From: Myxococcota bacterium
Lineage (GTDB): Bacteria > Myxococcota_A > SURF-8 > G963663525
Assembly: GCA_963676915.2 (NCBI GenBank)
Contig: CAXXVK010000049.1
Coordinates: 1-64,000, forward strand
Direction of reading: 5' to 3'
DNA: 64,000 bases
A program made the translations under genes and the position numbers. The notes beneath the pieces were generated by a model. The model was not told where the DNA came from. It worked only from the letters and a program-made list of their open reading frames with translations, and made no database searches. Position 1 is the first letter of the stretch, and each line of letters starts with the position of its first letter. Shown one piece after another: positions 1 through 18,326 of the stretch.

Positions 1-911
1 TTTTTGTCATCGAAGGCTTGGACCGTAAAACGGGAGTCTATCCCGTAGCCTCCTTTTTCTTTTTGGGAATCGAGACCTTTTAACGTGAAATCCCTTGTAA
101 TGTATTGAACTTGGTCTTTGTCCACAACCATCATCCATCCGGCTGCGGAACCACCGTATTTCTTATTGCCGACCAGTTGCATCACATTGACCGAATAATC
201 GTTGGTATGGGTATGGAACCCCACACGACGTGCAATAAACATCGTCGGCAGCATCGTCTGGTAGCTGTGTTCGTGGTAGGCCCAGCCCGAGACGTTGAAA
301 CTGTATTTACCCAATGACAACGTGCCTTTCACTCTCGCACGAGGGATGGTGAAAAAGACGGCCAGTTCGTCGCTTTTGTCTTTGTTGAAATAGTAGGTTC
401 CGTTGCCTTCTTTGACACCGGGGACCATCCTGCCGAATTCCAGATCCAGCTTCACACCGCCAGACTTACGGATCTCTAGGTGAATCGCGTGCCGTTTCGG
501 GGGAATACCTTCGATGTAGGTTTGCTCGGCTTTCGGGTTATCGGGATTGCTGCACCAGATTTGTTCTTTGTCTTTGAATTCGTGGAAGTTTTTCAGCGGT
601 TTTTCGCGGGCATAGACTCTCGGTGGCGATCCGGGCTTGACGATGGAAATGTTCGCGCCGCAGCGACCCTCACGAAGACCTATGTTCGTTTTCAGGAAAT
701 TGACGAAAAACTGGTAGCCGCTATCGGTGTGAATCTCGTAATACCAATACTCACCATAGGTTTTCTGCGGTCGTTCATGATGCCAGAAATCATCCGCCGT
801 GACAGGCTGCAATGAACCCGTGGGTGGGTATATCGGTTCTTTCGCCATTGCAGGACCGAGTTGTATAAATAGAATCAGAAGCGCAAATCCCAAACTATAC
901 GTTCGTCTCAC
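1..911 (-). CDS. Secreted AttH/CrtC/Svf1-like lipocalin-fold protein (3' end runs off the window)
   Basis: Not in the ORF track because there is no stop in the window. Translated by hand from GTG at 911 (GAGGA RBS upstream): MRRTYSLGFALLILFIQLGPAMAKEP...YGEYWYYEIHTDSG...IPRARVKGTLSLGKYSFNVSGWAYHEHSY..., open to position 3. The signal peptide and the E-x-W-Y and G-x-A-Y-H-E-H motifs fit this fold family. Confidence 0.65.
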   Translation of the reverse strand, partial: MRRTYSLGFALLILFIQLGPAMAKEPIYPPTGSLQPVTADDFWHHERPQKTYGEYWYYEIHTDSGYQFFVNFLKTNIGLREGRCGANISIVKPGSPPRVYAREKPLKNFHEFKDKEQIWCSNPDNPKAEQTYIEGIPPKRHAIHLEIRKSGGVKLDLEFGRMVPGVKEGNGTYYFNKDKSDELAVFFTIPRARVKGTLSLGKYSFNVSGWAYHEHSYQTMLPTMFIARRVGFHTHTNDYSVNVMQLVGNKKYGGSAAGWMMVVDKDQVQYITRDFTLKGLDSQKEKGGYGIDSRFTVQAFDDK

Positions 912-1021
912 GGATTCCTCCTTATCGAATCGTGATCTCAATTTCCACCGCACACTCTATCGTTAACGTAACACAAACCGGCAAAAACTCCCATAATCCG
1001 CTACCTTTTTGATACAAAACG

Positions 1022-3016
1022 TCACGGAATAGGGTGATTTTTGCGAATCGATTGCCTTAAATGAGGAATGCGGGCATCGTCCGGATGCTCGCTTTCCAAT
1101 TCTTTCAACTTTTCCAAGGCTTCCTTGATTTGTCCATTTTCTGCAAGAACCTGTGTGTAGTTTAAATGAAGTGTCATATCCTCAGGTTCATGTTTTATCG
1201 CATCGAGGAACAGCTTTTTCGCACGTTCTACATTGCCATGGTGTTGGGCGATATAAGCAAGTGTCTTGGCATTTCTCGGATCGTTGGGAAATTTTCCCAG
1301 CCATGCCATGACGGTCTGTTCCGCCTGGGGATCTTCGAGCAACGTAAGCGTCCAGGCTCGTCCTGCCCAGCCTTCATAATTATCGGGATCGAAATCGATC
1401 GACGCATTGAATAAACCGAATGCACGTCGAGGATTTTTTCCGAGCCAGCGGTTCGCCTCGTTGTTCGTTAGTTTTGGGTAATAGCGCCAGAACCCCTTAT
1501 AGTCTTCATTGTCGGTCCGGCTTGCCATTGCGAGCCAACTGGCCACAGCACGGCTATATTCCTGTTTGGAAAAATACGCTTTTCCTAGCCAGTGAAGGGC
1601 GATGATGTGTTTGGGGTAGATTTCAATGGCTCGTTGAAAACGTTGGATAGCCTGGTCATATTGTTGGCGTCCAAAGAGCTGTTTTCCATAGGCCAATTGC
1701 GCGTTGGCACTGTTGGGTGACGTGTCGGCGTAGCGTTCGAAAAGGGTATAATCGTCTCCCCAGACTGTGGCGATTTTTGATTGATATCCCAGGAAAATCG
1801 CCAAAACAACCCCAAGTACCGCTGCTGGAAGACGCCAATTCCATGGTCCACGGGAAAGAACAGGAAACACCAATCCCACGACGGCAATGCATAGCCCGAT
1901 CATTGGGAAATACAGATAACGCTCGGAAAAGAAGTTGGGAACCGGTGCAAAGCTCTGGACGACGAGAAGAATCTGCAACGAGAACCAAAGCAGTCCCAAA
2001 ACGACCGGCAAACGGTCGTACAATCTTTTGCGGACAGCGATAATCAGAAGCAGGATGGCAGTCCAGACAGCCAGTAGCAACGGCAAAGTATCCACGTACA
2101 TCACCGGAAGCTGATTGAATAACCAATCCATCGGTTGCGGGAACGGCCAGACGAAGCGCCAGAGGTAGTACACAAACAACCAACCCATGTTTAAATATCG
2201 CCAGAATTCTGGCAGCATGAGAGTCGGGTTGAACATGTCGGGGATTTCGATGGCGATGGTTCCCAAAGCTTGCCGCCTCAAAGCAAACATGATGGCAAGT
2301 GCGATCGTACCAAGAATCAACGCTGGCCACTGACGGCGAAACGTTTCTTTCCAGGAGGTCGAACCACCGGGGGCGAGACGGTCGGTCAGTACGAGTAGCG
2401 GCAAAATCATCACGCCGCTTTCTTTCGATAAAATGGCCGCAAAGAACAGAAAGAACGCTGCAATATGTCGTTTGATTCCAGGGCGGGAATGATCCTCGGG
2501 AAGCAAAACAAACAGGTACAACATGGAAAAAAACGCGCTAAGCAACGTCGAATGTTGCACGATGTTGTGAATCGTTTCGGCGTTGGCGGGATGAAGCGCA
2601 AACAGTGCCGCCGCAAACCACGGAAGTGGAGGTGGAAGCCAACGTCGGAGCAATCGAAATGCCATCCAGACTACGGAAAGATGCAACAGCAGGTTGACTA
2701 CGAGAAACAGCGTTGGATCTCCACCCGAAAGTTTCCACATGGTGATGAACGACATGACCAGCAACGGTCGGTACGTTCCACAGTTGGGAGGTTCGGTTCT
2801 GCCCCAGATATCGGCTTTCCAAAGGGTTCCCCATTGTCCTTCAGTGACGATCGGATTGTCTGCGATTGCCACGAAATCGTCATATACAAAACCGTTTCCA
2901 AGGGAAGGAAGCAGCATAGCGACGACAAGCAGGCCGAGCCAGAATCCACCGCGTACGCCTTGAAAAACGCTTGGGACGTCGGTATAGGGAGCATCTAATT
3001 CGATTGGTTGGTTCAT
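1022..3016 (-). CDS. TMTC-like GT-C glycosyltransferase (putative protein O-mannosyltransferase) with C-terminal TPRs
   Basis: Motifs FVYDD..I..NP, YRPL, LFALHP..AE, LSKESG, SERYLYFP and WGDDYTLF; about 11 TM segments followed by TPR repeats. Start taken at MNQPIELD (3016); the ORF track extends it to 3115. Confidence 0.8.
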   Translation of the reverse strand: MNQPIELDAPYTDVPSVFQGVRGGFWLGLLVVAMLLPSLGNGFVYDDFVAIADNPIVTEGQWGTLWKADIWGRTEPPNCGTYRPLLVMSFITMWKLSGGDPTLFLVVNLLLHLSVVWMAFRLLRRWLPPPLPWFAAALFALHPANAETIHNIVQHSTLLSAFFSMLYLFVLLPEDHSRPGIKRHIAAFFLFFAAILSKESGVMILPLLVLTDRLAPGGSTSWKETFRRQWPALILGTIALAIMFALRRQALGTIAIEIPDMFNPTLMLPEFWRYLNMGWLFVYYLWRFVWPFPQPMDWLFNQLPVMYVDTLPLLLAVWTAILLLIIAVRKRLYDRLPVVLGLLWFSLQILLVVQSFAPVPNFFSERYLYFPMIGLCIAVVGLVFPVLSRGPWNWRLPAAVLGVVLAIFLGYQSKIATVWGDDYTLFERYADTSPNSANAQLAYGKQLFGRQQYDQAIQRFQRAIEIYPKHIIALHWLGKAYFSKQEYSRAVASWLAMASRTDNEDYKGFWRYYPKLTNNEANRWLGKNPRRAFGLFNASIDFDPDNYEGWAGRAWTLTLLEDPQAEQTVMAWLGKFPNDPRNAKTLAYIAQHHGNVERAKKLFLDAIKHEPEDMTLHLNYTQVLAENGQIKEALEKLKELESEHPDDARIPHLRQSIRKNHPIP

Positions 3017-3139
3017 CGGTTTCCACAACGTGAGCGTACCGTAAATCGTAGATTGCTTTGGTGCTCCAAGTCTAAAGCGACAAGCCAACGAACGCAAGCA
3101 AAGCGTGGATTTCACCGAAAAACGAAAAAATTCGAATCA

Positions 3140-3940
3140 CTATTTCTGACAGGTTGGGCAATAAAAAGTACTACGTTGCTGTTGTAGGACGCGCTGGATC
3201 GTTGTTTTACAATGGGGGCAGGGGTCTCCCTCGTGGCCGTAGACATTCAGAAAATCCTGAAAGCCTCCATCTTCTCCACGAGCATTCTGGAAGTCGGAAA
3301 AGGTTGTGCCGCAAAACGAAATGGCTTTTCGCAAGATGCGTCGCATATGCCTGAAAAGACAGGAAATTTCTTCGTCTGCCAAGTCTTCGGCCGGTCGGAA
3401 GGGATCGATTCCCGAAGCGAACAGAATTTCCGAGGCATAGATGTTCCCCAACCCCACCAAGCGATCCTGACGCAATAACCACTGTTTTATCGGTTGACGA
3501 CTTCTCCCGATTTTCTGCTGTAGCAGTTTTGCTGTAAGGCGATTGTCAAGCGGGTCGATTCCACCTGTGTCGAAGTCTTTGAAGGACGAGGCAAGTTTCA
3601 TCGTTCCGAAACGTCGGACATCGGCGAAATCAAGACAACCGCTATCGAAATGCAAACGTGCACGAAGATATGGAACCGATTCCGGGCCGGAGCCTATCAG
3701 CAACCGACCCGTCATGCGCAAATGAACACCTAAAAACCGATCTTCGTTTTGTTTCCCTTCAAAAACGAAAAGAATGGTTTTTCCCAAGCGTTCAAGACGT
3801 TTTACCCGACGCCCCACGATAGGAGCGTCGGAATCAAGTGCTAATTTGTGATCGAAAATTTCGATGCGCTGAAGAATCCGTCCTTCGACCGCAGGTGCAA
3901 TTTGTCGTACGACGGTTTCGACTTCCGGCAATTCCGGCAT
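3140..3940 (-). CDS. mutM: Formamidopyrimidine-DNA glycosylase / AP lyase (Fpg)
   Basis: N-terminal MPELPEVET, HLRMTG, DVRRFG, H2TH motif GLGNIYASE and C-terminal zinc finger CPHC...FYCPTCQ. Confidence 0.97.
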   Translation of the reverse strand: MPELPEVETVVRQIAPAVEGRILQRIEIFDHKLALDSDAPIVGRRVKRLERLGKTILFVFEGKQNEDRFLGVHLRMTGRLLIGSGPESVPYLRARLHFDSGCLDFADVRRFGTMKLASSFKDFDTGGIDPLDNRLTAKLLQQKIGRSRQPIKQWLLRQDRLVGLGNIYASEILFASGIDPFRPAEDLADEEISCLFRHMRRILRKAISFCGTTFSDFQNARGEDGGFQDFLNVYGHEGDPCPHCKTTIQRVLQQQRSTFYCPTCQK

Positions 3941-3946
3941 GAAAGA

Positions 3947-4108
3947 TCAGCTTACCGGTTCGAACATGGATTTATCGGCTCCGCACACCGGGCAGACCCA
4001 ATCTTCAGGAATATCTTCGAATTTCGTACCGGGAGCGATGCCGCCATCGGGATCACCTTTTTCCTGGTCGTACACATAACCGCAGGCCGTACATTCCATC
4101 TTTTTCAT
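3947..4108 (-). CDS. Rubredoxin
   Basis: [14 protein letters not shown]...[20 protein letters not shown], with two CxxC motifs. AGGAGA RBS precedes the ATG at 4108. Confidence 0.97.
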
Positions 4109-4165
4109 ATTCGCTCTCCTAGTGGTGGTGATTCGGTCGTTAGCTAACATAAGGTAACCGTACTT

Positions 4166-4193
4166 ACTTTAGCCACGTACCTGGAAAGGTCAA
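4166..4193 (-). promoter_or_regulatory. Candidate sigma70 promoter for rubredoxin-mutM
   Basis: Minus strand TTGACC-N16-TAAAGT. Confidence 0.45.
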
Positions 4194-4263
4194 TAGATGG
4201 ACCGCGAAATTGTAACGAATTCAAATTCTCGACTCGTGGTTTTCCTGGTTTTGCATCGGGAAC

Positions 4264-4683
4264 TCAGGCGTTTTGGTTTTGTCGTCTCAGGCGGCGGGTC
4301 AGGACTTTGATGATTCCTTCGGCGATTTCGGACCGTTCGTGCATGATGAAGTAGAAATCATCGCGACCGATGACCAGAGCGACGACTTTTTCCTTGGCGG
4401 TGACGGTTGCCGAGCGTGGTTCGGAATCGAGAATCGCCATTTCTCCAACGCACTGGCTTGCACCCAATTCGGCGACTTCACGATCTCCCACGGTGACGCT
4501 GACTTTTCCGGAAACGATCAGATACAACACATCGCCCAACTCGCCTTCATTCATCAGCACTTCGCCGCTTTCGAAGGTGAATTCACGTGTGATTCTGGCA
4601 ATTTCCGCCAGTTCGCTTCCTGGAATGTTTCGGAACAGGTCGATCTGTTTTAGGATCAATACCCGCTCTACGATCGTCAGCAT
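4264..4683 (-). CDS. Stand-alone cyclic nucleotide-binding domain protein
   Basis: Start MLTIVERVLILK; motifs EGELGDVLYLIVSGKV and GEMAILDSEPRSATV (phosphate-binding cassette). No HTH domain. Confidence 0.9.
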   Translation of the reverse strand: MLTIVERVLILKQIDLFRNIPGSELAEIARITREFTFESGEVLMNEGELGDVLYLIVSGKVSVTVGDREVAELGASQCVGEMAILDSEPRSATVTAKEKVVALVIGRDDFYFIMHERSEIAEGIIKVLTRRLRRQNQNA

Positions 4684-4780
4684 CTTGTTTGCCTCTACAA
4701 ATGTTCCTTGTGCAGACTGTACTGGTTTGAACGATCTTGCGCAAGTTTTTCCATTTTCATACTCTCTTGAGGGAAGCTCT

Positions 4781-5548
4781 TTACTTGAAAACGGAAACTC
4801 TGTGGCTTGGAGTTTCCAACAGGCGATCGACGGCATAGCAGTATTTCGAGAATCCCCGCTGTCGCAGGTCGAAATTGCGAATGATTTCTATAGCCCAGAA
4901 TGGAACCGCACTTTCAGTCTTGATTTCCAGAATTACCGGCGACTCGTCGGCAGAGGTCGCAACCGGGTCGTCGCAGGAAATCATCGGACAATCGGGTACC
5001 GGGTCGAACGAGTCTTTCGACGGATGGCAGGTCAACCGGCGGTCGAAAGTGATACGTCCGTAGGTGTCGAGATCGCTGACATAAGGTTCTCGAAAATAAC
5101 GGACGTGAACGAGAGGTTTGGCTCCGCTCATCGTAACGACGTGTTCGAAAGACGTGGAGATCTTCTCGTGACCCACTTCCGTATAGCTTTCCTCGGGACG
5201 TTGCAAAAGCGTCGGCCAGTCGGATAAAGGGACCGGGCGGCGGAACTTCCAGATCATGGAATCGTTGCGGTATTTCAACTCCAGCCAGAGGTTGTTTTCA
5301 GGACGTGTTCCATAATAGCGGACTCTGGGTTTGACGCGCCGCAACTTGCGAAATTTCACGTCGTGATAAAAAAGAAAATCCGGGGTTTCGAAATACAGAT
5401 TGTTGACGGTGTAGCCTAGTATGTTCGGGTCGGCGTGGGCATCGAGTGAGAAAAAACTGCGGATGTAGTCCCGGATTTCCCGAGCCATTTGTTCGGAAAT
5501 CGTATACTTCAATTCGTAACGGATAATGGTGTTGACGTTTCCCGTCAT
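4781..5548 (-). CDS. VTC-domain polyphosphate polymerase (CYTH/triphosphate tunnel fold)
   Basis: Motifs RYELKY, NLYFETPD, KPRVRYY, LELKYR, YFREPY, RITFD, ILEIK and FSKYC. Confidence 0.9.
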   Translation of the reverse strand: MTGNVNTIIRYELKYTISEQMAREIRDYIRSFFSLDAHADPNILGYTVNNLYFETPDFLFYHDVKFRKLRRVKPRVRYYGTRPENNLWLELKYRNDSMIWKFRRPVPLSDWPTLLQRPEESYTEVGHEKISTSFEHVVTMSGAKPLVHVRYFREPYVSDLDTYGRITFDRRLTCHPSKDSFDPVPDCPMISCDDPVATSADESPVILEIKTESAVPFWAIEIIRNFDLRQRGFSKYCYAVDRLLETPSHRVSVFK

Positions 5549-5552
5549 CAGG

Positions 5553-6842
5553 CTACCTCGTCAAGGGTGCGGTATCGTCGAGTCCGACGAGGTAGGCGAG
5601 ATCCAACAGAGCATGACGCAATTGCCGCCGTTTGTCTTCCAGCATTTTTTCCGTCTCAACGACGGTTAGCTCCAACTCCAACACTTCATCGGGATACAGA
5701 CTGCGATGGATACGCGCCTGCTCGATAATGTTCTGCGCTTCACGGATCATGCTCTCGGCTTCAAGCTTAAAATGCTCCCAATCCTCCAGGATTTCCATAT
5801 AGAGGTTGTAGCCTTCGACCACTTCGTTTTCGATTCGTTCCGAATTGACCTCGATTTGCGCATCTTTGCGCTGTACGGCCTGCCGAGTGGCCCGAATATT
5901 CCCGGTGTTGAAATTGAACAGCGGCAGCTCGACTCCTACCATCAACTCGGCCCAGTCGGTGTTGTCTTTTTCCAGGTGATAGTTGGCTTCGATCATGCTG
6001 AACCACGGAATTCGCTGGTAGCGCTCGAATTCGTACTGATCCAGCGCCAGTTGTTTTCGTTGTACAGCGAGTTTGGTTTCGGGGCGGTTTTCCAGTGCCA
6101 GACGCACGAGTTCATCTTGGGGAAGGGTTAGCGTGGAAAGCGGAGCGGGATGTACGTGAATCGGTGTTTCCGATCCCGTCAGGCGCTGAAGGCGGCGGAG
6201 TACCACGTTGCGTTGTCTTTCGATACGCGACAGGTCGTTTTTCGATTCGGCCAGCCACATTTTCGCCTTGGTGAAATACACCACCGAGCGGTTTCCCTGT
6301 TTCACCATACCTTCGATAATTCGCAGACGTTCCGTTTCAAGTTGCAAACGTCGGTTGGCAAGCTGCCAGTGGTTATCCAGCATGGAAAACGTGGCGCAAT
6401 TACGGCGGATTTTTCGTATCAATTCCTGGCGAAACCGGCTGGCTCGGACCCGTCGTTCTTCGAGTTCCACCCGCGAGGTTTGCTCGGATTGCGACAACCC
6501 GCCGGGACGTGGAGGTGTCCAACGAAGTCCGAGTTGTACCTCGTCGAAGCCTTCCGTAAAATAGCGTGTCGAAAGATCCCGTACGCGCAACTCGGGATTT
6601 TCGAGGCTTCCGGCGGAGTCGAGGCGGTAGCGGGCTACGGTGATGTTCGATTGCAAAAGCGCAAGCTCGCGACTGTGCGCCAGCCCGAGTTCGACCACTT
6701 GAGCTTCATCGAGAATTACAGCGTTTTCGTCGGATTCCGTGGAGTTCTCTTGTCCAAAAGCCGGAGAAACGATGAGAAAAATCAAACAAGAAAACGTCAG
6801 AACGTGTAAAAAACGAAACGTTTGATTCTTTTGTTCGTTCAT
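5553..6842 (-). CDS. TolC-family outer membrane efflux protein
   Basis: Signal peptide ending AFG; LENPEL, ALENRPE and GVELPLFNFNTGNI motifs; two helical repeat halves. Confidence 0.85.
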   Translation of the reverse strand: MNEQKNQTFRFLHVLTFSCLIFLIVSPAFGQENSTESDENAVILDEAQVVELGLAHSRELALLQSNITVARYRLDSAGSLENPELRVRDLSTRYFTEGFDEVQLGLRWTPPRPGGLSQSEQTSRVELEERRVRASRFRQELIRKIRRNCATFSMLDNHWQLANRRLQLETERLRIIEGMVKQGNRSVVYFTKAKMWLAESKNDLSRIERQRNVVLRRLQRLTGSETPIHVHPAPLSTLTLPQDELVRLALENRPETKLAVQRKQLALDQYEFERYQRIPWFSMIEANYHLEKDNTDWAELMVGVELPLFNFNTGNIRATRQAVQRKDAQIEVNSERIENEVVEGYNLYMEILEDWEHFKLEAESMIREAQNIIEQARIHRSLYPDEVLELELTVVETEKMLEDKRRQLRHALLDLAYLVGLDDTAPLTR

Positions 6843-8866
6843 CGTTCCCCCTTGGAAACGATGGCGAATGTTGGCGCGCCCTGGTCGGCATCGAAAGCGA
6901 TGAAAGCTTTACCGCCTTCGAAAAAGGCCAGACCTTCGGCTTTTTTTCCGGGGAATGCGTTCAATATTTCCGATGCGCCGTTTGATTGCAGACGGAAATA
7001 GCGACCGATCTGGCGTTCCGTTCCGGCATTTGCGATGGTCGAAAGCCCATGCAAAACACCGGAAGCATCGAAAGCCAGCGACGAAATCGAGCCTCCCGGG
7101 GGATCTCCCAAGGGAAATTCAGCGAATCGTTGAAGTTGATTGGGGGAGAGCTTGCCTGTGTCGAGTAGTTGGCTTGGGTTGTCCAACTTCCAGACCATCG
7201 CCTTGTTTCCGTCCAAAGGCTGCTTGAGTCCGAGATACAGGCTGCCGTCCTTCCACGCTGCCCCTTCGATGTTAAGCAGTTTGCGACCATCCCGGTCGAG
7301 CGCTATAAGGCCAAGTTGCTTTAACTGGTCGGAAGTATACGATTTTTCCAATGCCGAAAGAAATTCGATGCTTTTGATGACTTCGAACGAGCGGCCTTCG
7401 CGTCGGACTTTGTATATTTTTTCGCGGGATGACTTCCGTTTCCCCTTTTTCGACGTGTTTTGACTGGAGACGAACCAAAGGATGTCTTTGGATTCGACTG
7501 CAATTGCTTCGAGATCGTTGAATTTCTTCACGCCACGCACAAGGAGCGGTTGGTTTTCCACGTTTCCGAAGCGATCCATCAGGAAAATCCACGGTGTTTT
7601 GTCGTTCGAATTCTTCCAGCCGGTGTCGTCACTCAACACGATGAAACGCTGGAGGTCATCCAGCCAGGTGAGGGCCGACGGCTCGAAGCGGGTGCGTCGC
7701 GCCAACTCAGGCGGCACGGTGATGGTTCCCTCTTTCAACGTGACTTTGTTTTTTTTGGAAGCGGGTAGGGGGGCGGCGTGAGCGGAGTGGGGAAAGTCCA
7801 CGTTTTTTCCGGTGAAGCGAACGTGAACCGCTTCGCCCGGTAAAAACGGATGACCGTCGTCCAGTTTTACCCGCACTTTTCGCGCCCAGAAAATCTGGTT
7901 GCGGAACGTCAGCCGCTCGGGGACCGCTTCGAAACCGGGATGCACGAAAACCACGGTTCCGCCGAAAATATCCAAGCTTCGGCGTCGAGGTGTGATTTCG
8001 ACTCGCGTTCCGGTGGCGATCGATGTATCCGCCGTTTCTGGAATATACATTTGCAGGTGGTTGGAGCGGGTTTCCTCGATGACGATCCAGGGCTGAAATG
8101 CCGCGAGGGTGTCGCTTTCCCAGGCCAGAACATCCACGACACGACCGATGCAAGGGGCGTGTAGACTCCGAGCGTGAATCCGTTCTTCCAATAGCGCGAT
8201 TTCCGTTCGTAGTTCACTGACGGCAAGGCTTCGTTCGCTTAAACCCGATTGTACGAGTTTTTTCTCGTCGTCGGGTAACGTTACTCCGGATTCCGCCTGC
8301 TGAGCCTGAACTTTTCTTTCGATGGCTCTCTCGGAGGCGTTCGCCTCGGCCACATAGCGTTCCAGCCATGCACGGCGCAGCAAGAGGCGTGTCAAATCGG
8401 GGGTATGGCCCAATCCCGCATTTTCGGCGGTGCGTAGGCGCTCGATTTCCTCGTTGATGCTTTTCAACTCGGCTCTGCGGGAAGCGAACAGCGCTTTGGT
8501 TTCGGCCAAGTTGGAAAGATCGGCCTCCAGTGCCAGTTGCAATTGCTGGAATTCGAGGGCGAAACGTCGTTCGTCGGCGGGGAAGCCGCGTTCCAGTTCT
8601 TTAAGCGTTTCTTCAAGGATCGTTTTCTGCCGTTCGAGTTCTTGGTTGTCCAGGCTGGCGAGCAATTGCCCCGGCTTCACTTCGTCGCCTACACGAACCT
8701 GTAACGCACCGATTTTCCCGGCTTCAGGGACGCCCAATGTGTGTCGTCGGGTTTCCATCAGGCCGAGGTAATTCGAAGCGAAATACCACTGATGAAAGAA
8801 GTAGGCTGCTACACCCGCAATGAACAGCCATACAAGAACGAATCCGCTTGGTTTGAATCGTTTCAC
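6839..8866 (-). CDS. HlyD-family periplasmic adaptor fused to a C-terminal DUF3616-like beta-propeller domain
   Basis: N-terminal TM, lipoyl half-motifs GKIGALQVRVGDEVKPGQLLASLD and LHAPCIGRV, a long coiled coil and a beta-barrel ending FLPGEAV. A further ~290 aa carries FEPSAL, DLEAIA, LNIEGAAW..LYLGLKQPL and KAEGLA. Confidence 0.8.
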   Translation of the reverse strand: MKRFKPSGFVLVWLFIAGVAAYFFHQWYFASNYLGLMETRRHTLGVPEAGKIGALQVRVGDEVKPGQLLASLDNQELERQKTILEETLKELERGFPADERRFALEFQQLQLALEADLSNLAETKALFASRRAELKSINEEIERLRTAENAGLGHTPDLTRLLLRRAWLERYVAEANASERAIERKVQAQQAESGVTLPDDEKKLVQSGLSERSLAVSELRTEIALLEERIHARSLHAPCIGRVVDVLAWESDTLAAFQPWIVIEETRSNHLQMYIPETADTSIATGTRVEITPRRRSLDIFGGTVVFVHPGFEAVPERLTFRNQIFWARKVRVKLDDGHPFLPGEAVHVRFTGKNVDFPHSAHAAPLPASKKNKVTLKEGTITVPPELARRTRFEPSALTWLDDLQRFIVLSDDTGWKNSNDKTPWIFLMDRFGNVENQPLLVRGVKKFNDLEAIAVESKDILWFVSSQNTSKKGKRKSSREKIYKVRREGRSFEVIKSIEFLSALEKSYTSDQLKQLGLIALDRDGRKLLNIEGAAWKDGSLYLGLKQPLDGNKAMVWKLDNPSQLLDTGKLSPNQLQRFAEFPLGDPPGGSISSLAFDASGVLHGLSTIANAGTERQIGRYFRLQSNGASEILNAFPGKKAEGLAFFEGGKAFIAFDADQGAPTFAIVSKGER

Positions 8867-8872
8867 GTCGGA

Positions 8873-9553
8873 CTATACCTCCACCGTTGTTTTTTGATTG
8901 TGATAGGTTAGTCCGCGCAGTCCTTTAACTTTGGAAAGCGCCTGGATCAGTCGTGTTTCGTCGTTTTCTCCTCCCAATTTGATCTGGTAGGCGCAGTCCA
9001 TCCATTCTCCTTGGGAAATGTCCCGAAGGGTGACCAGTACGAAATGTTGAGAGAGACGACGCAAAACGTCCGTAACTTCGTCGAGGTGTTCGTCCCCGGA
9101 AGGAATCTGGAATCGGATAAGGCCGTCATTGCGCTTATGGGTGGCGAACGATGAACGATGCAGGATCATCGCGACCGCCGAGAAAAACAGCGTCCCGATA
9201 ATCGCCGCCGTATAGCTTTGAACGCCGCAAGCGACACCTACGCCGAGTGAGGCGAAAAGAAAAACGAGGTCTTTGGGGTCGCGCAGGTTGGTACGAAAAC
9301 GGATAATCGCGAGTGAACCCACGATCCCGATACCTCGGGCGATGTTGTCGCCGATGGCAATCATCAGCAGGCAGGATATCAAGCTGCCCAACACCATGCT
9401 TTGCAAAAGCCCTCGTGACCAGCTAAGTCCCTGAAATGTCCGTTCGTAAATGGCGGCCACGACGCTGGATAGCAAAAACGCCAACATGAACGATAGCAAA
9501 ATATTGCGCCAGTCCAGCGCAATCGATCCGAATTGCAGTAGCAGAGTATCCAT
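8873..9553 (-). CDS. DUF4956-family membrane protein
   Basis: IGDNIARGIGIVGSLAIIRFRTNLRDPKDLVFLF signature, about 4-5 hydrophobic segments and a soluble C-terminal domain. GAGGAG RBS. Confidence 0.9.
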   Translation of the reverse strand: MDTLLLQFGSIALDWRNILLSFMLAFLLSSVVAAIYERTFQGLSWSRGLLQSMVLGSLISCLLMIAIGDNIARGIGIVGSLAIIRFRTNLRDPKDLVFLFASLGVGVACGVQSYTAAIIGTLFFSAVAMILHRSSFATHKRNDGLIRFQIPSGDEHLDEVTDVLRRLSQHFVLVTLRDISQGEWMDCAYQIKLGGENDETRLIQALSKVKGLRGLTYHNQKTTVEV

Positions 9554-9619
9554 TGCTCCTCAACACACTGTTTTCATACGCCGATACAAGAGATGTTTTC
9601 CCGAAGGAAGAATTTCAGA

Positions 9620-9648
9620 AGTGTATGAAATTCCAGTTAGAAAAGCAA
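9620..9648 (-). promoter_or_regulatory. Candidate sigma70 promoter of the DUF4956-HlyD-TolC-VTC operon
   Basis: Minus strand TTGCTT-N17-TACACT, about 67 nt upstream of the ATG at 9553. Confidence 0.55.
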
Positions 9649-9651
9649 TGT

Positions 9652-12600
9652 TCAGTCAGGATTTGCATAATCGGGGATGTCTGTAGCAACCCATTCGATA
9701 CTGTATTCGGTGACCGAATTCCCGGAATACAGGTTTTCGACTTTCAGGTAATAGAAACCGGGATACATGATTTCCGAGATTTGCCAATTGTCGGAGGCAT
9801 CCGCCGTAACGTCGGGACCATCCGTAGGATCGATGTACAGCGAAAGAACGGGACTCTCGGTGGAACTCCAACCGTTACCGTTCAATTCGACACGGAAATA
9901 GACCCTGCTCGTGAAACTGCTGACGTAGATGTAATACCAATCGACATCCCCCGCCGGACAGATCGAATGCACCTGTTCGTCGTATTCACTCAGAGTGACT
10001 GCATTTTGCCAGGTTTGATCGACTTCGTAGCCGTCACAGTCGCAGTTGTCGTCACCGATGCACAGGCATTGTCCGTCAGAGACCGTTAGCGGTATCTCGC
10101 AAGCTGTGGGCATACATTCCCGCTCGATACATGTAGCTTCCAGCGCTCCTTCAAACGGTTCGGCCGTGCAGGGATTCGAGCACATGCCGCAGTGGTCGTT
10201 GTCGGTGGAAATGTCGATTTCACAGCCGTTGCGGTCGTTGTCGTCGCAATCGTAGTAATCCCCGATGCAGCGGTCGATGTTGCAGGTGCTATCTACGCAA
10301 GTATAAGAAGATACATGGCATTCTCCATTTTCACAGGCTTCTGTCTGGTCGTAACAATGGCGGTCGCAGGAGCCGCAATGCCACCCATCGTCGTTATCTG
10401 GCAGATAGCGTTCACAACCATTGTCGCTTTCGCCGTCACAGTCCCCATAGTCGGTGATACAGGAAGTGATACGACATTCTCCCTGGAAACATTCGTAGTC
10501 GGCATTGTCGAAATCGCAACGGTAGGCATAATTGTTGGCTGCGTTACTGCATCCTCCACAGTGGTTGATGTCTACCAGCAGATCTCTTTCACAACCGGTA
10601 CTTTTTTCTCCGTCGCAATCTGCCCAGCCACTCATGCAGGTCAATATTTCGCATTGACTGTCAACGCACTGGTATTCGTTCACTTTGTACCAGCTATAGC
10701 GTGTGCAGTCTTTATGCCCAAGATCGTCGGGGCAGCCACCGCAGTTTTCTGTATCGGTGGGAAGGTGAATTTCACAACCGTTGTCAATATCACCGTCGCA
10801 ATCTGCCCAATCCGTTTCGCAGGTGGTAATTTTGCAGTTTCCTGCATAACAACTGTACTGAGCGACGTGGCAGTTTTCCCCGCAGGAACGAGGCAGGTCT
10901 GCGCAATTTGTATCGCAACCTCCGCAGTTTTCGCCGTTTTCGTCGTTCCGAATATCTGTTTCGCAGCCAGGATACTCTGACCCGGTTTGGCAATCTTCAT
11001 AACCGTAGAGGCAGGAATCCACTTCGCAAGTACTGTTTTGGCACACGTAGGTATCGACATGAGGCCAATCGTAGTCTTCGCAACGATTATTGCAGTCCCC
11101 GCAGTGGTTAAGGTTCGCCGTAGTGGAGGTTTCGCAGCCGTCGAGCGGGCTTCCGTTGCAGTCGGCCCAACCTTCGTCACAAGTATCGACCTTACAGCTT
11201 CCTTCCACACAGAGATGGTCGAGGGTGTGGTTCAGGTTACAGACCTGATTGCAGCCGCCGCAGTGGTCCGGGCTGGCTTCCGTGCCAAGTTGAGGATGGC
11301 CGTAAATATCTGTTTCACAACCGTTTTCTTCGTTTTCATCGCAGTCGTCGTAGCCGCTTTCGCAAGATACCAGACGACAGACGCCTTGTTGACAGGAATA
11401 CTCATCGACGTTGGACCAGTCCAATGCACCGCAATCGTTTTCGCAGGAGCCGCAGTGCTCCGGGTCCATGCTGGGGAAGGTTTCGCACCCGGTTTGCAGA
11501 GGATCGCAGTCCAGATAACCTAGATTGCATTCGGTAACGCATTCGCTTTCGATGCAGTGAAGAAAACGAATATGATAGGTTGCCCAGTCCGATTGAGCAG
11601 GTTCACAAGCCTGGTTGCAGCCCGAACAATGCAGCCGGTTCGAGGTGGTGTCCGTTTCGCAACCTTCCACTTCTTCCATGCAGTCGTCCCAACCTTCATC
11701 ACACAGAACGACTCCGCAGATTCCATCGTTGCAGGAGTACTCCGCTACGTTGGCGAGGGTACATGGCTCGCAGGAGCCACAGTGGGCCGGGTTATCTAGT
11801 AAATAGGTTTCGCAGCCGTCCGAAGCCTCGCCGTTGCAGTCTTCATAACTGTTTTCACAGAGGAAACCGCAGGTTTGGCCGTTGCAGGTGGCGGAGGTGT
11901 GGTCGTATTCGGGGCAAGGTTCGCAGAGAGTTCCGCAATGGTCTACGCTCTGATTGGATACGCAGGTTTGACCGCAAAGGTGGGTGGTCAGGGGGCAATC
12001 GGTTCCAAGACCGGTGAGAGGAACCTGTGTCGTGCTGTTTTCGACATCGTTGCTTGTGATTTCAAGCACTGCGTTATGAGACCCGGACCTCTCCGGCTCG
12101 AAAGTTACAGAAAGAACCCATTCTTCTGCAAGTTCCGCCGAAAGCGTTATCGGGAATTCGATGGAAGACATATCGGGAGACAGAACGAAGGACGAAGAAT
12201 CATCTCCTGTGATTTCAATGGCTTCTATGGATAACGTGCCGTTGCCTTCGTTTGAAAGGGTCAGCGTTATCGGTTCGGAGACACTGCCTGCAAGCTGTTG
12301 ATCGAAATCAAGACCCGTTTCGAGTAGTTCCGGTTCGATATGCAATAGCGGTTGTGGAATTTCGGTGCAGTCGGGGTAGTTTTCATGCCCCGTGGCGCAA
12401 ATGTCACACGTATCGCCATCGTAGGCTTCGTTGCAGGTGCAGTGCCCCGTTTGAGGATCGCAGACCCCGTGCCGGTTGCAACTATACAGGTTGCACAAAC
12501 CTTCCACATCGATACAGCAGCGGAATCCCACGGTTTCCAGGCTGTCCGACGATTCATGAATCGTGCAGGAAGAACAGGAAAGATTCTCGGCATCGAAATC

Positions 12601-15600
12601 TTCGAAACTTCCTCCACAGGCGAGCGGTTCGTTTTCGTCTTCCGGTTGAATCCATTCCGCAACGTTGCCCGAAGCGTCGAAAACCTGGTATGGATCGTTC
12701 GAACTCGTCCAGGAACAGAAATAGGGATCATCCACTCGTGAGGCCGTGAGTTGGCTTTCGCCACCCAGAGGAACGGCGGTTCGGTCGGCGCAACGTCCTT
12801 CGAGGAAGGATTCTCCATAAGGGTAGGCGTGTCCTTCACCGCAGCCATAATTCCATTCCTCAAAGTGACACAGGCGTTTTCCTTGGTTGATGCAGGCGCG
12901 GGAGGCTTGTTGCCACGATAGCCAGGCCGAAGGTCGCTGACCGGCGACGGAACACGCGTACAGTTCCGTTTCTGGGGAATCGTCGGGGAATTCGTCATCC
13001 ATCAGGGGATCGGGGTTGACCTCCGGTGGGAAAAACTCGTGGAAATCCGGAGGAAGTTCCTCGACGGATTGCCCGTAGAGCGTGCCATCGACATCGCAAT
13101 ACATGTCTTCACTGAGGACGTTTTCATACCGATCCATACAGTAGGAGAAGGAGGGTAACTCCACCATCTCTGGATGTCCGGGGCAGCAGCCGTCAATGGC
13201 TTCTCCGACACAAACACCCTCATGACAGCTATCGTTTTCGGTGCAGCCGTCGTTGTCATCGCAGGTTCGTGTATCGGCGACAGGCTCGAAAACACAGGCT
13301 TCATCACTGGATGCGGCGTAAGGATCGCAGGAATCCTCGGTGCAGTCGTTGTCATCGTCGCAGGTGCGCGAATGACCGCCGCAGATGTCCATACCGCTGA
13401 TTTTATTGCAGGTTCCATCGATTATGCAGGGGTTGGAAGGTGTGCAGCTTTGTCCTGTTTGGAATTCGAAATGACATCCTGCATCGAGACCGCTTCCAGG
13501 CTGGCAGGTGATGTCGTAGCATTGCGGCAATTGTCCGGTAAAGTCCGGGTGGTTGGCGTCGCAGAGAACGGGGGCTTCGTAGCCGTCGCCGTCTTCATTG
13601 CAACGTGAACTTTGCGGAACTCCTTGAGACATTTCACAGACGACGGTTCCTGCTGTACACGAAAACTGCTCTTCCTCTTCCACATCCTGTTCATCTTCAT
13701 CGCCATCCGGGAAAATAGTGTGTTCGTCCCAGGCAATTAGCGACGGTCCCTCTCCGACGGCCAACCCGTGCAGGGAATCGGCGAAGTCGAGCGCTAGAAT
13801 GCTCGTTGCTGCAGCCGGTGTGCCATCCAGTGTGTGAATGTCGAAAGATTCCCAGTCGTTTCCACCGTTTTCGGTGAACAGCAATAGCGGCTGGCTTTCG
13901 TCGATTGTCCCGGCACTTCCCGCCAGCCAACCTCTTTCGAGGGATTCGAAGGAGATATCCTTCAGTTCTCGGACGGCTTTTGTGCCTACCGGGGTTTCCA
14001 CTGATTGTGGAGTCGATACCGTTTGCCAAAGCCATCCGCCGTCGGTCGTTTGCCAGATTTCGTCCAGTCGTTCGCCATCTGTTTCTTTTTGTACCAGGAT
14101 GAAGCCGTTTTGCGCGTCCAGGAATTGTGCTCGAAGGAAAAGAACGCTCAATCCCTGTTGCACGGCGCTCCAGGTTTCACCACCGTCAGGGGTACCCCAA
14201 ATCGTTCCGTATGAATCGATCTGAGGTTCGTTGTTGTCATCGAGGCTTTCTTTGTCCGCAAAGACCCATCCTTGGAGAGAATTGACGAATTCGAGGTCGG
14301 CAAGATGCAGACCGGAGGCCGGAAGGGAAAGAGTCGTCCAGTTCTGACCTCCGTCACGGGTACGAAGTACTTTGCCACCGTCGCAGCCGACCCAGCAGGT
14401 CAGATCGTCCACACAGTCGATGTGCGAACATTGCGGATTATCCGTAAGTCTTCGAGCTTCCCAAAGAAGTCCACCATTGTAGAAACGGTACAGGCTGGTA
14501 ACGTTTTCATCCCCAGCTTGTCCTCGACCCACGCCGATTCCCTGCGTAGCGGACAGAAAACGGGCGTCGTGCAGGAAAAAGCTGTCTGCCTCCGGCGCGA
14601 TACTCGATGTTGCAATCCAGGAAATGCTGTAGTTCGTCAAAGAAGCTCGGAGTATCCGTGCTTCCCCTGAATCATTGTTGCGACCCCAGGCGAGCAGGCT
14701 TTCTCCATCGAATGAAACGATGTCTTCGAATGTCGCATTGTTTCCTTCTCCATGGTTGTAAACCTGCAACCAATAGGGAGATTCTTCCTCGTCTTCGGTT
14801 TCGTCACCATCCACCGGGGGATCGTCCAGGCAATAGGCTTGTCCGTCGTTATCGTCTCGGCATCCTGCTTCACAGAGACGTACCGTCTCGCAGGCGCAGC
14901 CATCCGGGCAGTTTTCGGAGGAAGGGCAACCCGGAGCGGCGAAAATCAGAGCGTCTTCCAGGCAGAACCAACCCTCCCGGAGTGTCGCCACACTGGGGAA
15001 GCAGTCCGCGTCCGGATCGTAGGAACATTCCTGCTCGTCTTCGTCTCCATCGGGACCGGGAATGCAGGACGGATATCCCACGTAACCATCGTCACAGGTG
15101 CCGCAACGTTCACCGGTGTAGCCTTCCTCACAGAGACAGGTTCCCGTTTCGGACTGGCATTGCCCGTGATTGCTACAGGTGATTGTCGTTCCCGAAATAC
15201 ATTCTCCTGCCTGACAACGGTCGTTTTCGGTGCAGGCCAGTCCATCATTACAAGGGGTATTGTCTTGCAAAATCAAATCTATACACGATTCTTCATCCCA
15301 ATTGTACGTGACGTAATGGCAATCGTTGGAAGGTTCGGGACATGGTGGGCAGGGGGTGCGGAACGTCGCCGAAGAGCCTGCTTCCAGCGAATTTCCGGTG
15401 GCGTCGGCTACGGAACCGAGGAGTTCCCAACGGTACTCCCTGCCTGTCAAAAGCGCTTGTTGAGGAAGAAAACGCAGGGTGAGGCCGTCTTCGTCGAGAA
15501 CGGAATGTCCGGGAATCGCGTTGTCTTTTTTGAAAAGCCTGAAGGTTTCGTCTGGAGTGTCGCAAACGATAGGTTCGTTAAATCGCAGCCAGATGGAGTC

Positions 15601-18096: not shown

Positions 18097-18326
18097 CGGG
18101 AACTCCGAAAGCGCTGAGTTACGGCATGTTGTCGCGTATCGTTTTAACTGCCTGTCGATTCGTGTCGTCAAAACTACATTATAGTTAGAAATCTTGTAAA
18201 GAAAACAGAAACTTCGATGTTGCCCGAGTAGTGTTCATCTCGCCGAACTTACAAGTTACGCCCCCTCTGCAAATCACTGCATACTAATTTCAACGGAATG
18301 TAAGAACCTATAGCGATATGACGTTC

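Follow-up and report, generated by a model that had tools for sequence, protein, structure and literature searches.

The operon and its surroundings

The window, i.e. the whole stretch of 64,000 nucleotides analysed here, carries four consecutive genes on the minus strand. The first encodes a DUF4956 membrane protein (8873..9553, 226 amino acids). It is followed by the gene of an adaptor fusion (6839..8866, 675 amino acids, GTG start), which joins an EmrA-like MFP to a C-terminal propeller-type domain, by that of a TolC-family outer-membrane channel (5553..6842, 429 amino acids) and by that of a VTC-domain protein (4781..5548, 255 amino acids). Both the open reading frame calls and the sequence gave gaps of 6, -4 and 4 nucleotides between these genes, as stated in a preliminary description of this DNA.

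A spacer of 98 nucleotides on the same strand (9554..9651) separates the DUF4956 gene from a giant gene upstream, and contains a GAGGAG ribosome-binding site as well as the sequence TTGCTT-N17-TACACT, proposed earlier as the operon's own promoter. This sequence agrees with the consensus at 7 of 12 positions and was not reported by a consensus promoter scan, which gave one promoter-like site in the region where chance alone would give 3.3; a site scan found no terminator-like site between the giant gene and the DUF4956 gene. A separate promoter is thus unproven, and the proposal was not upheld. The giant gene was considered as a part of the unit and rejected, since it adjoins the operon only in a genome of the same genus (L128). 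The neighbours in the window encode a 2839-residue surface protein, a T2SSE ATPase, a cNMP-binding protein, Fpg and a TPR protein; three of these genes (cNMP-binding, T2SSE and Fpg) recur at none of the compared loci.

No ABC, RND or MFS gene lies within approximately 10 kb of the operon or between position 1 and approximately 34 kb of the window, in line with the earlier remark that such pumps are missing in and beside the operon, and no PET transporter is encoded with the adaptor in the first 34 kb. The preliminary description also gave CotH as absent, which is correct for the genes beside the operon; CotH is nevertheless a recurrent neighbour at related loci, and two copies unlinked to the operon are found elsewhere in the same genome.

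Features of the four proteins

The domains named in the preliminary description were recovered by HMM searches, directly with Pfam models for DUF4956, OEP and VTC and through a family profile for the adaptor. The VTC protein matched PF09359 with 104.8 bits (cut-off 23) over profile positions 2-233 of 235. A profile of 27 relatives aligned full-length with Vtc4 (3g3q, E 2.1e-16), and its matches among solved structures were only Vtc4, Vtc2 and Vtc3, again over the full length. The protein is a stand-alone Vtc4-like triphosphate-tunnel catalytic domain: its 255 residues include no SPX domain, no Vtc1-type membrane domain, no signal peptide and no hydrophobic segment. K14 and K235, the counterparts of Vtc4 K200 and K458, which we take to be tunnel residues needed for catalysis, are invariant in 27/27 sequences, as are R75, R77 and E208, the counterparts of Vtc4 R264, R266 and E426. 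The R264A/R266A/E426N triple substitution in Vtc4 is described as giving a catalytically impaired complex (PMC9911596). The motifs RYELKY, KPRVRYY, LELK, RITFD, LEIK and FSKY, earlier judged intact, are indeed present and contain invariant VTC columns. In the tunnel motif the first glutamate position is occupied by R, as in Vtc4, and the second by E, where Vtc4 has T, so that the active site is not identical to that of Vtc4.

The DUF4956 protein matched PF16316 with 46.4 bits (cut-off 30.6) and belongs to a family of 6417 representatives (clusters) at E<=0.001. An AF2 model (pLDDT 79.3) predicted membrane helices at residues 15-39, 47-67, 71-88, 93-110 and 114-133, followed by a beta-alpha-beta-beta-alpha-beta, ACT-like part that would be cytoplasmic. 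This C-terminal domain gave structural matches with ACT and MgtC C-domains at Z 10.3 to 8.2, those with MgtC being 7qa5 (Z 9.1, rmsd 2.9, 89 aligned residues) and 2lqj (Z 8.2), with many other ACT domains equal or better. Searches with Foldseek and VIA-align gave no solved match, channels included, for the membrane part; the ACT domain alone was matched. In its five modelled membrane helices and C-terminal ACT-like domain DUF4956 may resemble MgtC/SapB, with which it also shares weak sequence matches, but it remains below the cut-off of the MgtC family PF02308 (24.9 vs 31.4 bits), far below those of the NCBIfam MgtC models, and has its own invariant basic loop RFRTNLRDPRD (RFRTxLRDPRD as a family pattern). 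To our knowledge, MgtC does not pair with VTC or adaptors. A pore made of this small protein would require an oligomer.

Taken alone, the adaptor stayed below all Pfam cut-offs (HlyD_D23 23.8, HlyD_3 17.7, Phytase-like 19.5), and 19/19 members of its family matched HlyD_3 at E<=0.01. The family profile matched EmrA (4tko, E 2.5e-24) and MacA (7e-16) among the solved structures. The MFP part spans residues ~1-372 with an N-terminal membrane anchor, the single hydrophobic segment being residues 6-27, and a beta-propeller-type domain covers residues ~385-675. The label DUF3616 given to it earlier was approximately right, in that the domain falls in the DUF3616/DUF6929/DUF6910/Phytase-like group. 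The adaptor is thus nearest to EmrA, and adaptors of the EmrA type serve inner-membrane partners without large periplasmic domains.

The channel protein has a Sec-type signal peptide (hydrophobic segment 7-31) and two OEP repeats (77.1 bits, cut-off 22), and its profile matched MtrE, CusC and OprM over nearly the full length (E 2.7e-10 to 1.6e-8). The idea of unusually basic duct proteins was considered and rejected, since channel and adaptor are acidic overall, as are the other ducts of the genome. The channel has a net charge of -9 and a pI of 5.7, compared with a median pI of 5.76 for linked OEPs and 5.1-8.9 for five control OEPs, and at this crude level of net charge and pI there was no sign of a conduit adapted to a polyanion.

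The likeness of the duct proteins to ordinary efflux ducts would fit a new tripartite efflux pump for a cargo other than polyphosphate, with DUF4956 as the transporter and VTC, in place of polymerising, hydrolysing triphosphate or ATP so as to drive or regulate it. Triphosphate-tunnel enzymes other than VTC are hydrolases or cyclases. Hydrolases are described as the majority among these enzymes (PMC4641920), and the literature that we found contains no assayed bacterial VTC-domain protein and thus no bacterial member with demonstrated polymerase activity. Against this stand the strong VTC score with full-length matches solely to Vtc4, Vtc2 and Vtc3, the invariance of the residues needed for Vtc4 catalysis, the fact that we know of no precedent besides VTC itself for a tunnel enzyme driving a transporter, and a phosphate porin and a PHO4 gene at one related locus (L079), which point to phosphate chemistry. 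We regard a pump for another cargo as unlikely.

Recurrence of the gene linkage

The same genome contains a second, paralogous cluster encoding Cthe_2159, DUF4956, a 393-residue adaptor without propeller, OEP and VTC in the same gene order, and both VTC proteins fall in one starred clade of 15 rows in the VTC tree. Among 57 loci found through the adaptor fusion, all four genes were present in 43, which span at least nine named phyla and show two orders, DUF4956-MFP-OEP-VTC (25 loci) and VTC-DUF4956-MFP-OEP (18 loci). DUF4956, adaptor and channel are contiguous in both orders, and VTC alone shifts between front and back. Median intergenic spacings at the adaptor-found loci ranged from -1 to 10 nucleotides. 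Of the other 14 loci, 11 lie on contigs that end at the expected place of the missing gene, L039 has no VTC and L054 no OEP. The completeness of L052 is ambiguous.

Starting from VTC, we took 100 loci of 173 matches in the phylum of the window. In 92 of them DUF4956 was adjacent; adaptors were adjacent in 77 and TolC-like genes in at least 42. The 77 adaptors comprised 59 clear ones, 6 of a divergent subfamily and 12 of the A5 type. In a second phylum DUF4956 was adjacent in 57/60 VTC loci and an adaptor in 38/60, 30 of the latter being of a very divergent type (hhalign 98.9%, E 3.9e-17) missed by ordinary models. A provisional class of loci with VTC and DUF4956 only (27 and 48 in the two phyla) was abandoned as partly an artefact of the adaptor models, 12 and 30 of these loci holding a very divergent adaptor upstream of VTC. 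All these samples are non-random, consisting of top-ranked matches with enough flanking sequence.

Chance adjacency of unrelated genes has a negligible probability, being refuted by the recurrence of the arrangement across phyla (43/57 and at least 42/100 loci), the overlapping start and stop codons and the paralogous copy. In the 100 loci from the window's phylum no open reading frame joined two of VTC, DUF4956, MFP and OEP, and a VTC domain was absent from the five longest proteins among the 150 best DUF4956 representatives.

A further possibility is that adaptor and channel serve a conventional pump encoded elsewhere, VTC and DUF4956 being a separate module for polyphosphate or for Mg/phosphate homeostasis, similar to MgtC, that merely shares the operon. 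In favour of this, several pumps often use one TolC-family channel, DUF4956 may be likened to MgtC, for which no transporter function is known, and the genome has other pumps, as judged from its five other adaptors and five other channels. However, adaptor genes normally adjoin their own pump, and here it is DUF4956 that adjoins the adaptor in 43/43 complete loci and in two gene orders, an association kept by three adaptor subfamilies. The cluster type also tracks the VTC tree, with 19 label changes against a mean of 56.3 after shuffling (0/200 shuffles as low), a contrast that is overstated because kin share labels. An unlinked pump is quite improbable in our estimation.

The linkage of VTC and DUF4956 with HlyD/TolC genes, for which a neighbourhood survey had been suggested, recurs across phyla without a linked ABC or RND pump. 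Among 177 flanking open reading frames of 22 loci we found no ABC ATPase and no RND gene, but a convergent MFS gene at L039 and two permeases of the MacB/FtsX type, of which that at L044 is adjacent and that at L030 lies 4.5 kb away; these frames were called greedily and are unreliable in high-GC loci, where genes may be missed or mis-started. The recurrent neighbours of the clusters are CotH kinases, lamin-tail (LTD), Cthe_2159 and PPDK_N proteins. Signal peptides or lipoboxes mark these proteins as exported, and this suggests that the role is extracytoplasmic. At a single locus, L079, a gene for a phosphate-selective porin O/P takes the position of the channel gene and is followed by that of a PHO4 phosphate transporter.

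No linked TolC gene was detected in 58/100 and 52/60 of the diderm VTC-DUF4956 loci of the window's phylum and the second phylum, respectively, and no adaptor was detectable in 33/160 VTC loci of both phyla. A dedicated export duct is thus not obligatory for the VTC-DUF4956 core. This leaves room for deposition of the polymer in the periplasm or at the surface in place of its release: VTC and DUF4956 would carry it across the inner membrane only, as in vacuolar storage, and adaptor and channel would tether or vent it at the envelope, for use there by the exported CotH kinases, PPDK_N and LTD proteins. VTC with DUF4956 forms the core that is kept throughout (92/100 and 57/60 loci), the TolC gene is missing from many loci and the neighbouring proteins bear export signals. 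TolC-family channels, on the other hand, are known as exit ducts, and where present the TolC-family gene is translationally coupled inside the operon. Gram-positive relatives are reported to have VTC-DUF4956 and CotH beside pel operons (PMC7112168; bioRxiv 10.1101/2024.04.20.589940), which favours deposition. We hold deposition without release to be rather unlikely.

A candidate route for polyphosphate synthesis and export

We propose that the four genes form a conserved candidate machine for the synthesis of polyphosphate and its passage out of the cell, and we see about even chances that they constitute a synthase-coupled polyphosphate exporter. In its favour are the domain identities, the recurrent linkage with its paralogous cluster, the invariant catalytic residues and the lack of a linked conventional pump; against it are the difference from Vtc4 in the active site, the acidic duct proteins and the loci devoid of a TolC gene or an adaptor. 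The cytoplasmic VTC protein would make polyphosphate from ATP, polymerising it in a basic tunnel as Vtc4 does, and would pass the growing chain to a DUF4956 oligomer in the inner membrane. In the inner membrane DUF4956 is proposed to partner VTC as well as the adaptor, so that its oligomer would also dock the EmrA-like adaptor, anchored by one helix. The latter would bridge to the dedicated TolC-family channel, through which the polymer, probably as a Mg/Ca salt, would reach the cell surface or the medium. Polymerisation, and not an ABC, RND or MFS pump, would provide the driving force. The propeller fused to the adaptor would be placed close to the inner membrane and act on the chain by binding or trimming it; it is optional, as it was gained or lost repeatedly.

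Synthase-dependent secretion of cellulose (Bcs), PNAG (Pga), Pel and alginate relies on a polymerase at the cytoplasmic face, passage through the inner membrane and periplasmic and outer-membrane parts, all encoded in one operon without a separate pump. The proposed system is the same in outline, in mode of action only. It has no homologous component, its four proteins being devoid of glycosyltransferase and TPR/beta-barrel porin domains; its polymer would be inorganic polyphosphate, and its envelope parts are borrowed from efflux pumps. As in EmrAB-TolC, other tripartite efflux systems and type I secretion, an adaptor (here of the single-anchor EmrA type) and a TolC-family channel are encoded together, but the operon lacks an MFS, ABC, RND or PET transporter, the adaptor subtype carries a C-terminal propeller and the presumed energy source is polymerisation.

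The eukaryotic VTC complex (Vtc4/Vtc3/Vtc1; 3g3q, 7ytj, 8i6v) is reported to link synthesis at the cytoplasmic face with the chain's transit through a membrane partner (PMC9911596). The tunnel domain studied here is homologous over its full length and keeps the key basic and acidic residues, and the concept of synthesis coupled to membrane passage would be shared. In contrast to that complex, the SPX and Vtc1-type three-helix domains are missing, the partner is the unrelated DUF4956 (five helices and ACT), and the chain would be destined for the bacterial envelope, for which an adaptor and an outer-membrane channel are added. The Gram-positive pel-linked genes contain the same VTC-DUF4956 pair, often with CotH, but occur in monoderms, which have neither adaptor nor channel; intact catalytic residues and a 4-TM protein whose ACT domain is cytoplasmic are described there, and the authors suggest that the polymer may remain cytoplasmic (PMC7112168; bioRxiv 10.1101/2024.04.20.589940).

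Our literature search found neither a published description of the four-gene system nor a paper on bacterial polyphosphate export. The accepted view is that PPK1 and PPK2 make the polyphosphate of bacteria and that it does not leave the cytoplasm, and we know of no explanation for the origin of the surface or extracellular polyphosphate of some bacteria. If correct, the proposal would provide a bacterial polyphosphate polymerase of the type known from the eukaryotic VTC complex and an export route for an inorganic polymer, both the first of their kind. Besides the four existing kinds of inner-membrane partner for adaptor/TolC ducts there would be a fifth, powered by polymerisation and not by ATP hydrolysis or proton flow in a pump. 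DUF4956 and the bacterial CotH/LTD proteins, two large families whose function is unknown, would acquire a role as well, with a bearing on metal binding, biomineralisation, the biofilm matrix and phosphorus cycling.

More speculatively, diderms of many phyla might maintain an extracytoplasmic phosphoryl economy, in which a VTC-DUF4956 synthase-translocase and the adaptor/TolC duct supply polyphosphate to the periplasm and cell surface. The polymer would act there as an energy-rich phosphoryl donor or as a matrix, its users being exported CotH kinases, exported ATP-grasp-like PPDK_N proteins, and lamin-tail and Cthe_2159 binding proteins. We consider this extension possible, if on the unlikely side. 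It would make DUF4956 a polymer-conducting component in the inner membrane, of a class new to tripartite systems, and VTC the main polyphosphate synthase in lineages poor in PPK1, such as the order of the window, where PPK1 was found in 1/10 genomes and VTC in 9/10. Over all genomes counted, 89 had both VTC and PPK1, 59 VTC only, 100 PPK1 only and 53 neither; the two are distributed independently, and VTC is therefore not merely a substitute for PPK1. Cultured Nannocystis strains carry the cluster (L045 and L048), which makes the question directly testable.

The four genes and their surroundings

The four open reading frames lie head to tail on the minus strand with gaps of 6, -4 and 4 nt, as the preliminary description had given them. 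They encode a DUF4956 protein of 226 aa (9553..8873), an adaptor fusion of 675 aa (8866..6839), a TolC-family channel of 429 aa (6842..5553) and a VTC-domain protein of 255 aa (5548..4781). The four domain identities proposed in that description were confirmed, three of them above the Pfam cut-offs (DUF4956, 46.4 bits; OEP, 77.1 bits; VTC, 104.8 bits). The adaptor alone fell under every Pfam and NCBIfam cut-off and was identified through its family: HlyD_3 was matched by 19 of 19 aligned full-length members, and the family profile matched the solved structures of EmrA (4tko, E 2.5e-24) and MacA (7e-16) over positions ~43-320. The C-terminal 290 residues of the adaptor, a propeller-type domain, belong to the DUF3616/DUF6929/DUF6910/Phytase-like group, and a profile search gave no sequence match for them among solved structures. 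The channel profile aligned near end to end with MtrE, CusC and OprM. A hydropathy scan detected no hydrophobic segment in the VTC protein, a single N-terminal anchor in the adaptor and a segment resembling a signal peptide in the channel; of DUF4956's five helices it picked up four.

Upstream and on the same strand lies a surface-type giant of 2839 aa with a lipoprotein-like start (9652-18171, minus strand), which carries Cep192/HYDIN/ASH-type Ig domains, Big_5, BNR/Sortilin repeats, an FGE-sulfatase-like domain and EGF-like motifs, and is preceded by a T2SSE/MshEN secretion ATPase (18327-20153, minus strand). Downstream are a cNMP-binding protein, Fpg and a TPR protein; the first, small and single-domain (4264-4683, minus strand), lies 97 nt downstream of VTC. 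A longer cNMP-binding reading frame from 4836 overlaps VTC, and the true start is probably elsewhere. In a comparison of 157 related loci, the giant adjoined the operon only in a same-genus genome, and the remaining window neighbours, cNMP-binding protein included, recurred in none. The unit therefore consists of the four genes.

The promoter of its own previously proposed for the operon, TTGCTT-N17-TACACT, is not supported: it matches the consensus at only 7 of 12 positions and is absent from the output of a promoter scan, which found fewer sites in the operon region than expected by chance. No terminator was seen by scanning between the giant and DUF4956.

Recurrence of the gene cluster

Three independent routes, through the same genome, the adaptor and VTC, indicate that the linkage is conserved. 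The window's own genome has exactly two VTC and two DUF4956 genes. The second, paralogous cluster, on contig C72 (L003, 4267-10464), has the same gene order as the window and reads Cthe_2159, DUF4956, a 393-aa adaptor without propeller, OEP and VTC. Upstream of it is a gene for a large hybrid histidine kinase of the PAS/GAF type.

For the adaptor-based route, a word-based protein search yielded 18 full-length relatives, whose alignment was scanned over genomes and gave 57 loci, with median intergenic spacings of -1 to 10 nt. All four genes were present in 43, of which 25 had the order of the window and 18 the order VTC-DUF4956-adaptor-channel. Among the 14 incomplete loci, 11 had a contig end where the missing gene belongs, L039 was without VTC and L054 without the channel, though room was present, and L052 was ambiguous. 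By record title, 26 complete loci were from Myxococcota, and others were from Ignavibacteriota, Bacteroidota, Calditrichota, Fidelibacterota, Deferribacterota, Acidobacteriota and Thermodesulfobacteriota. Cultured Nannocystis is among the carriers (L045, L048). Recurrence of the four-gene linkage, which the preliminary description had put forward for checking, was borne out in several phyla.

The VTC family is present in 148 of the 301 genomes of the window's phylum. Stretches of 16 kb round 100 of 173 matches, from 91 genomes, were scored with profiles made from our alignments; these loci are the listed matches, taken by rank from the top, that have 7 kb or more of upstream sequence, and not a random sample. 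DUF4956 adjoined VTC in 92 of the 100. The full set with propeller was found in 30, a propeller adaptor without channel in 4, an adaptor without propeller plus channel in 12, an adaptor only in 13, a divergent adaptor, in part with a divergent channel, in 6, VTC by itself in 8 and, at first scoring, an apparent VTC-DUF4956 pair alone in 27. In a second phylum, to which the genome of locus L017 belongs, VTC occurred in 95 of 167 genomes (a tally taking in two unpublished genomes that contributed nothing further), and the first scoring of 60 loci gave adaptor and channel in only 8 and the pair alone in 48.

The pair-alone class did not stand as first counted. When the neighbours were clustered, 30 of 45 second-phylum loci of this class proved to share a conserved protein of 370 aa, lying upstream of VTC at a median distance of 12 nt. 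Its family has no Pfam match, and reads as an anchor, a lipoyl half, a long coiled coil, a second lipoyl half and a barrel. It aligned with the adaptor part of the family of the window's fusion (hhalign probability 98.9%, E 3.9e-17, 310 columns) and, among solved structures, with MacA (4.5e-9) and EmrA (1.9e-8); by these sequence comparisons it is a very divergent periplasmic adaptor. One example lies directly upstream of VTC in L165 (7714-8775, minus strand), and others are in the range L161-L215 and in L110, L127, L133, L140, L142, L143, L145, L147, L148, L155, L157 and L160. Standard annotation would call such a protein 'hypothetical'. With its profile an adjacent adaptor was gained in 30 of the 48 and 12 of the 27 pair-alone loci of the second and the window's phylum, respectively, which brings the loci with an adjacent adaptor to 77 of 100 in the window's phylum and 38 of 60 in the second. 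Even so, 33 loci showed no adaptor, and in 20 of these a CotH-type giant of ~1000 aa is directly adjacent, which is the known Gram-positive arrangement.

Cluster type tracks the VTC tree (FastTree, 96 VTC sequences), with 19 label changes, whereas shuffled labels gave a mean of 56.3 and none of 200 shuffles reached 19 or fewer. Propeller presence switches repeatedly across the tree, and the two VTC copies of the window's genome fall in one starred 15-row clade. Since kin share labels, this result shows a stable vertical association and nothing more. The four-gene arrangement is real, far beyond chance, and the four genes are a conserved module. The architecture matches no described bacterial system.

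VTC protein, membrane protein and putative duct

Only Vtc4, Vtc2 and Vtc3 were matched among solved structures by a profile of 27 VTC proteins (Vtc4, E 2.1e-16, positions 4-248). In the printed alignment, Vtc4 K200, R264, R266, E426 and K458 align to K14, R75, R77, E208 and K235, which are invariant in 27 of 27 sequences; the catalytic residues are intact, as the preliminary description had judged. In Vtc4, K200 and K458 too are tunnel residues required for catalysis. According to PMC9911596, the Vtc4 triple mutant R264A/R266A/E426N is catalytically impaired, and in Vtc a positively charged path links the exit of the tunnel with the membrane channel. No report of an assay of any bacterial VTC member was found in open-access papers and preprints.

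The most likely mechanism is a polyphosphate exporter in which polymerisation would drive the export, and to which we give about an even chance. Its main rivals are deposition of polyphosphate in the periplasm or at the surface, a cargo other than polyphosphate, and a duct shared with another pump. The invariant residues would suit the exporter; one active-site motif position, E12 here for T198 in Vtc4, speaks against it.

The AF2 model of DUF4956 (pLDDT 79.3, 26 sequences) shows five helices and, at the C-terminus, a domain of beta-alpha-beta-beta-alpha-beta topology. This domain matches ACT domains such as 2nzc (Z 10.3), as well as MgtC C-domains (7qa5, Z 9.1, rmsd 2.9, 89 residues; 2lqj, Z 8.2); the membrane part has no match among solved structures. 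The ACT domain is predicted to be cytoplasmic, also in bioRxiv 10.1101/2024.04.20.589940, so the invariant RFRTNLRDPRD loop that lies between helices 3 and 4 would, in the model, face the cytoplasm. Helices 3 and 4 also hold invariant glycines. A putative DUF4956 pore would need an oligomer. Weighing against the polyphosphate exporter, DUF4956 is small and resembles the known MgtC family, and no VTC-DUF4956 fusion was found in the 100 loci of the window's phylum or, among the best 150 DUF4956 representatives, in the five longest.

The claimed lack of a linked ABC or RND pump agrees with our survey. No ABC, RND or MFS transporter is among the operon's immediate neighbours in the window, and Pfam searches of 177 of 216 flanking reading frames, from 22 of the 26 loci that have 5 kb or more on either side, brought up neither an ABC ATPase nor an RND transporter. 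They did find a single MFS gene, convergent, in L039, and two permeases of the FtsX/MacB type (L030, at 4.5 kb; L044, adjacent). Elsewhere the window's genome encodes five more adaptors and five more channels, some side by side. The adaptor and the channel are both net acidic, as are control ducts, which counts against the polyphosphate exporter. A further point against polyphosphate export is that a linked channel is missing beside many VTC-DUF4956 pairs.

Recurrent neighbours and polyphosphate kinases

Four kinds of protein recur beside the clusters: CotH kinases, Cthe_2159 proteins, proteins with a PPDK_N domain, and lamin-tail-domain proteins, which often carry a type IX secretion tail. 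The examples inspected, one PPDK_N protein included, begin with signal peptides or lipoboxes. In pyruvate phosphate dikinase, PPDK_N is the domain that binds ATP. The PPDK_N neighbours (L027, 6627-8723; L049, 5557-7800; L051, 2978-8329; L053, 5907-8699; also in L084, L109, L136 and L061) are of 700-930 aa, with the match confined to the C-terminal part. The signal peptide of the L027 protein is odd for an ATP-using domain. According to PMC7112168 and bioRxiv 10.1101/2024.04.20.589940, pel operons of Gram-positives have cotH, DUF4956 and a gene resembling a polyphosphate polymerase as neighbours; both papers leave open what these genes do. Open-access papers and preprints held nothing relevant on VTC with polyphosphate and TolC, or on extracellular polyphosphate with outer membrane and export.

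Neither PPK1 (PF02503) nor PPK2 (PF03976) was matched in the window's genome, which is 90.8% complete. Within its order (G000, the window's genome, with G005, G012, G018, G024, G030, G036, G042, G048 and G054), VTC was detected in 9 and PPK1 in 1 of the 10 genomes. In the phylum as a whole, 89 genomes have both, 59 VTC only, 100 PPK1 only and 53 neither, and the two distributions are independent.

In a single case (L079, 3657-7231, minus strand), a divergent adaptor is followed by a phosphate-selective porin O/P (171 bits) and, after it, a phosphate transporter of the PHO4 type (399 bits). L078 and L129 likewise have PHO4 homologues close to the cluster. An adenosine deaminase takes the channel's place after the propeller adaptor in two related genomes (L077, 12074-13693; L085, 12239-13699). 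Beside the VTC-DUF4956 pair of L176, a giant exported protein (3-5999, minus strand) combines two lamin-tail domains, a CotH kinase domain, six TIG domains and three CBM96 modules, and relatives of it of ~1000 aa occur in 28 of the 45 second-phylum pair-alone loci.
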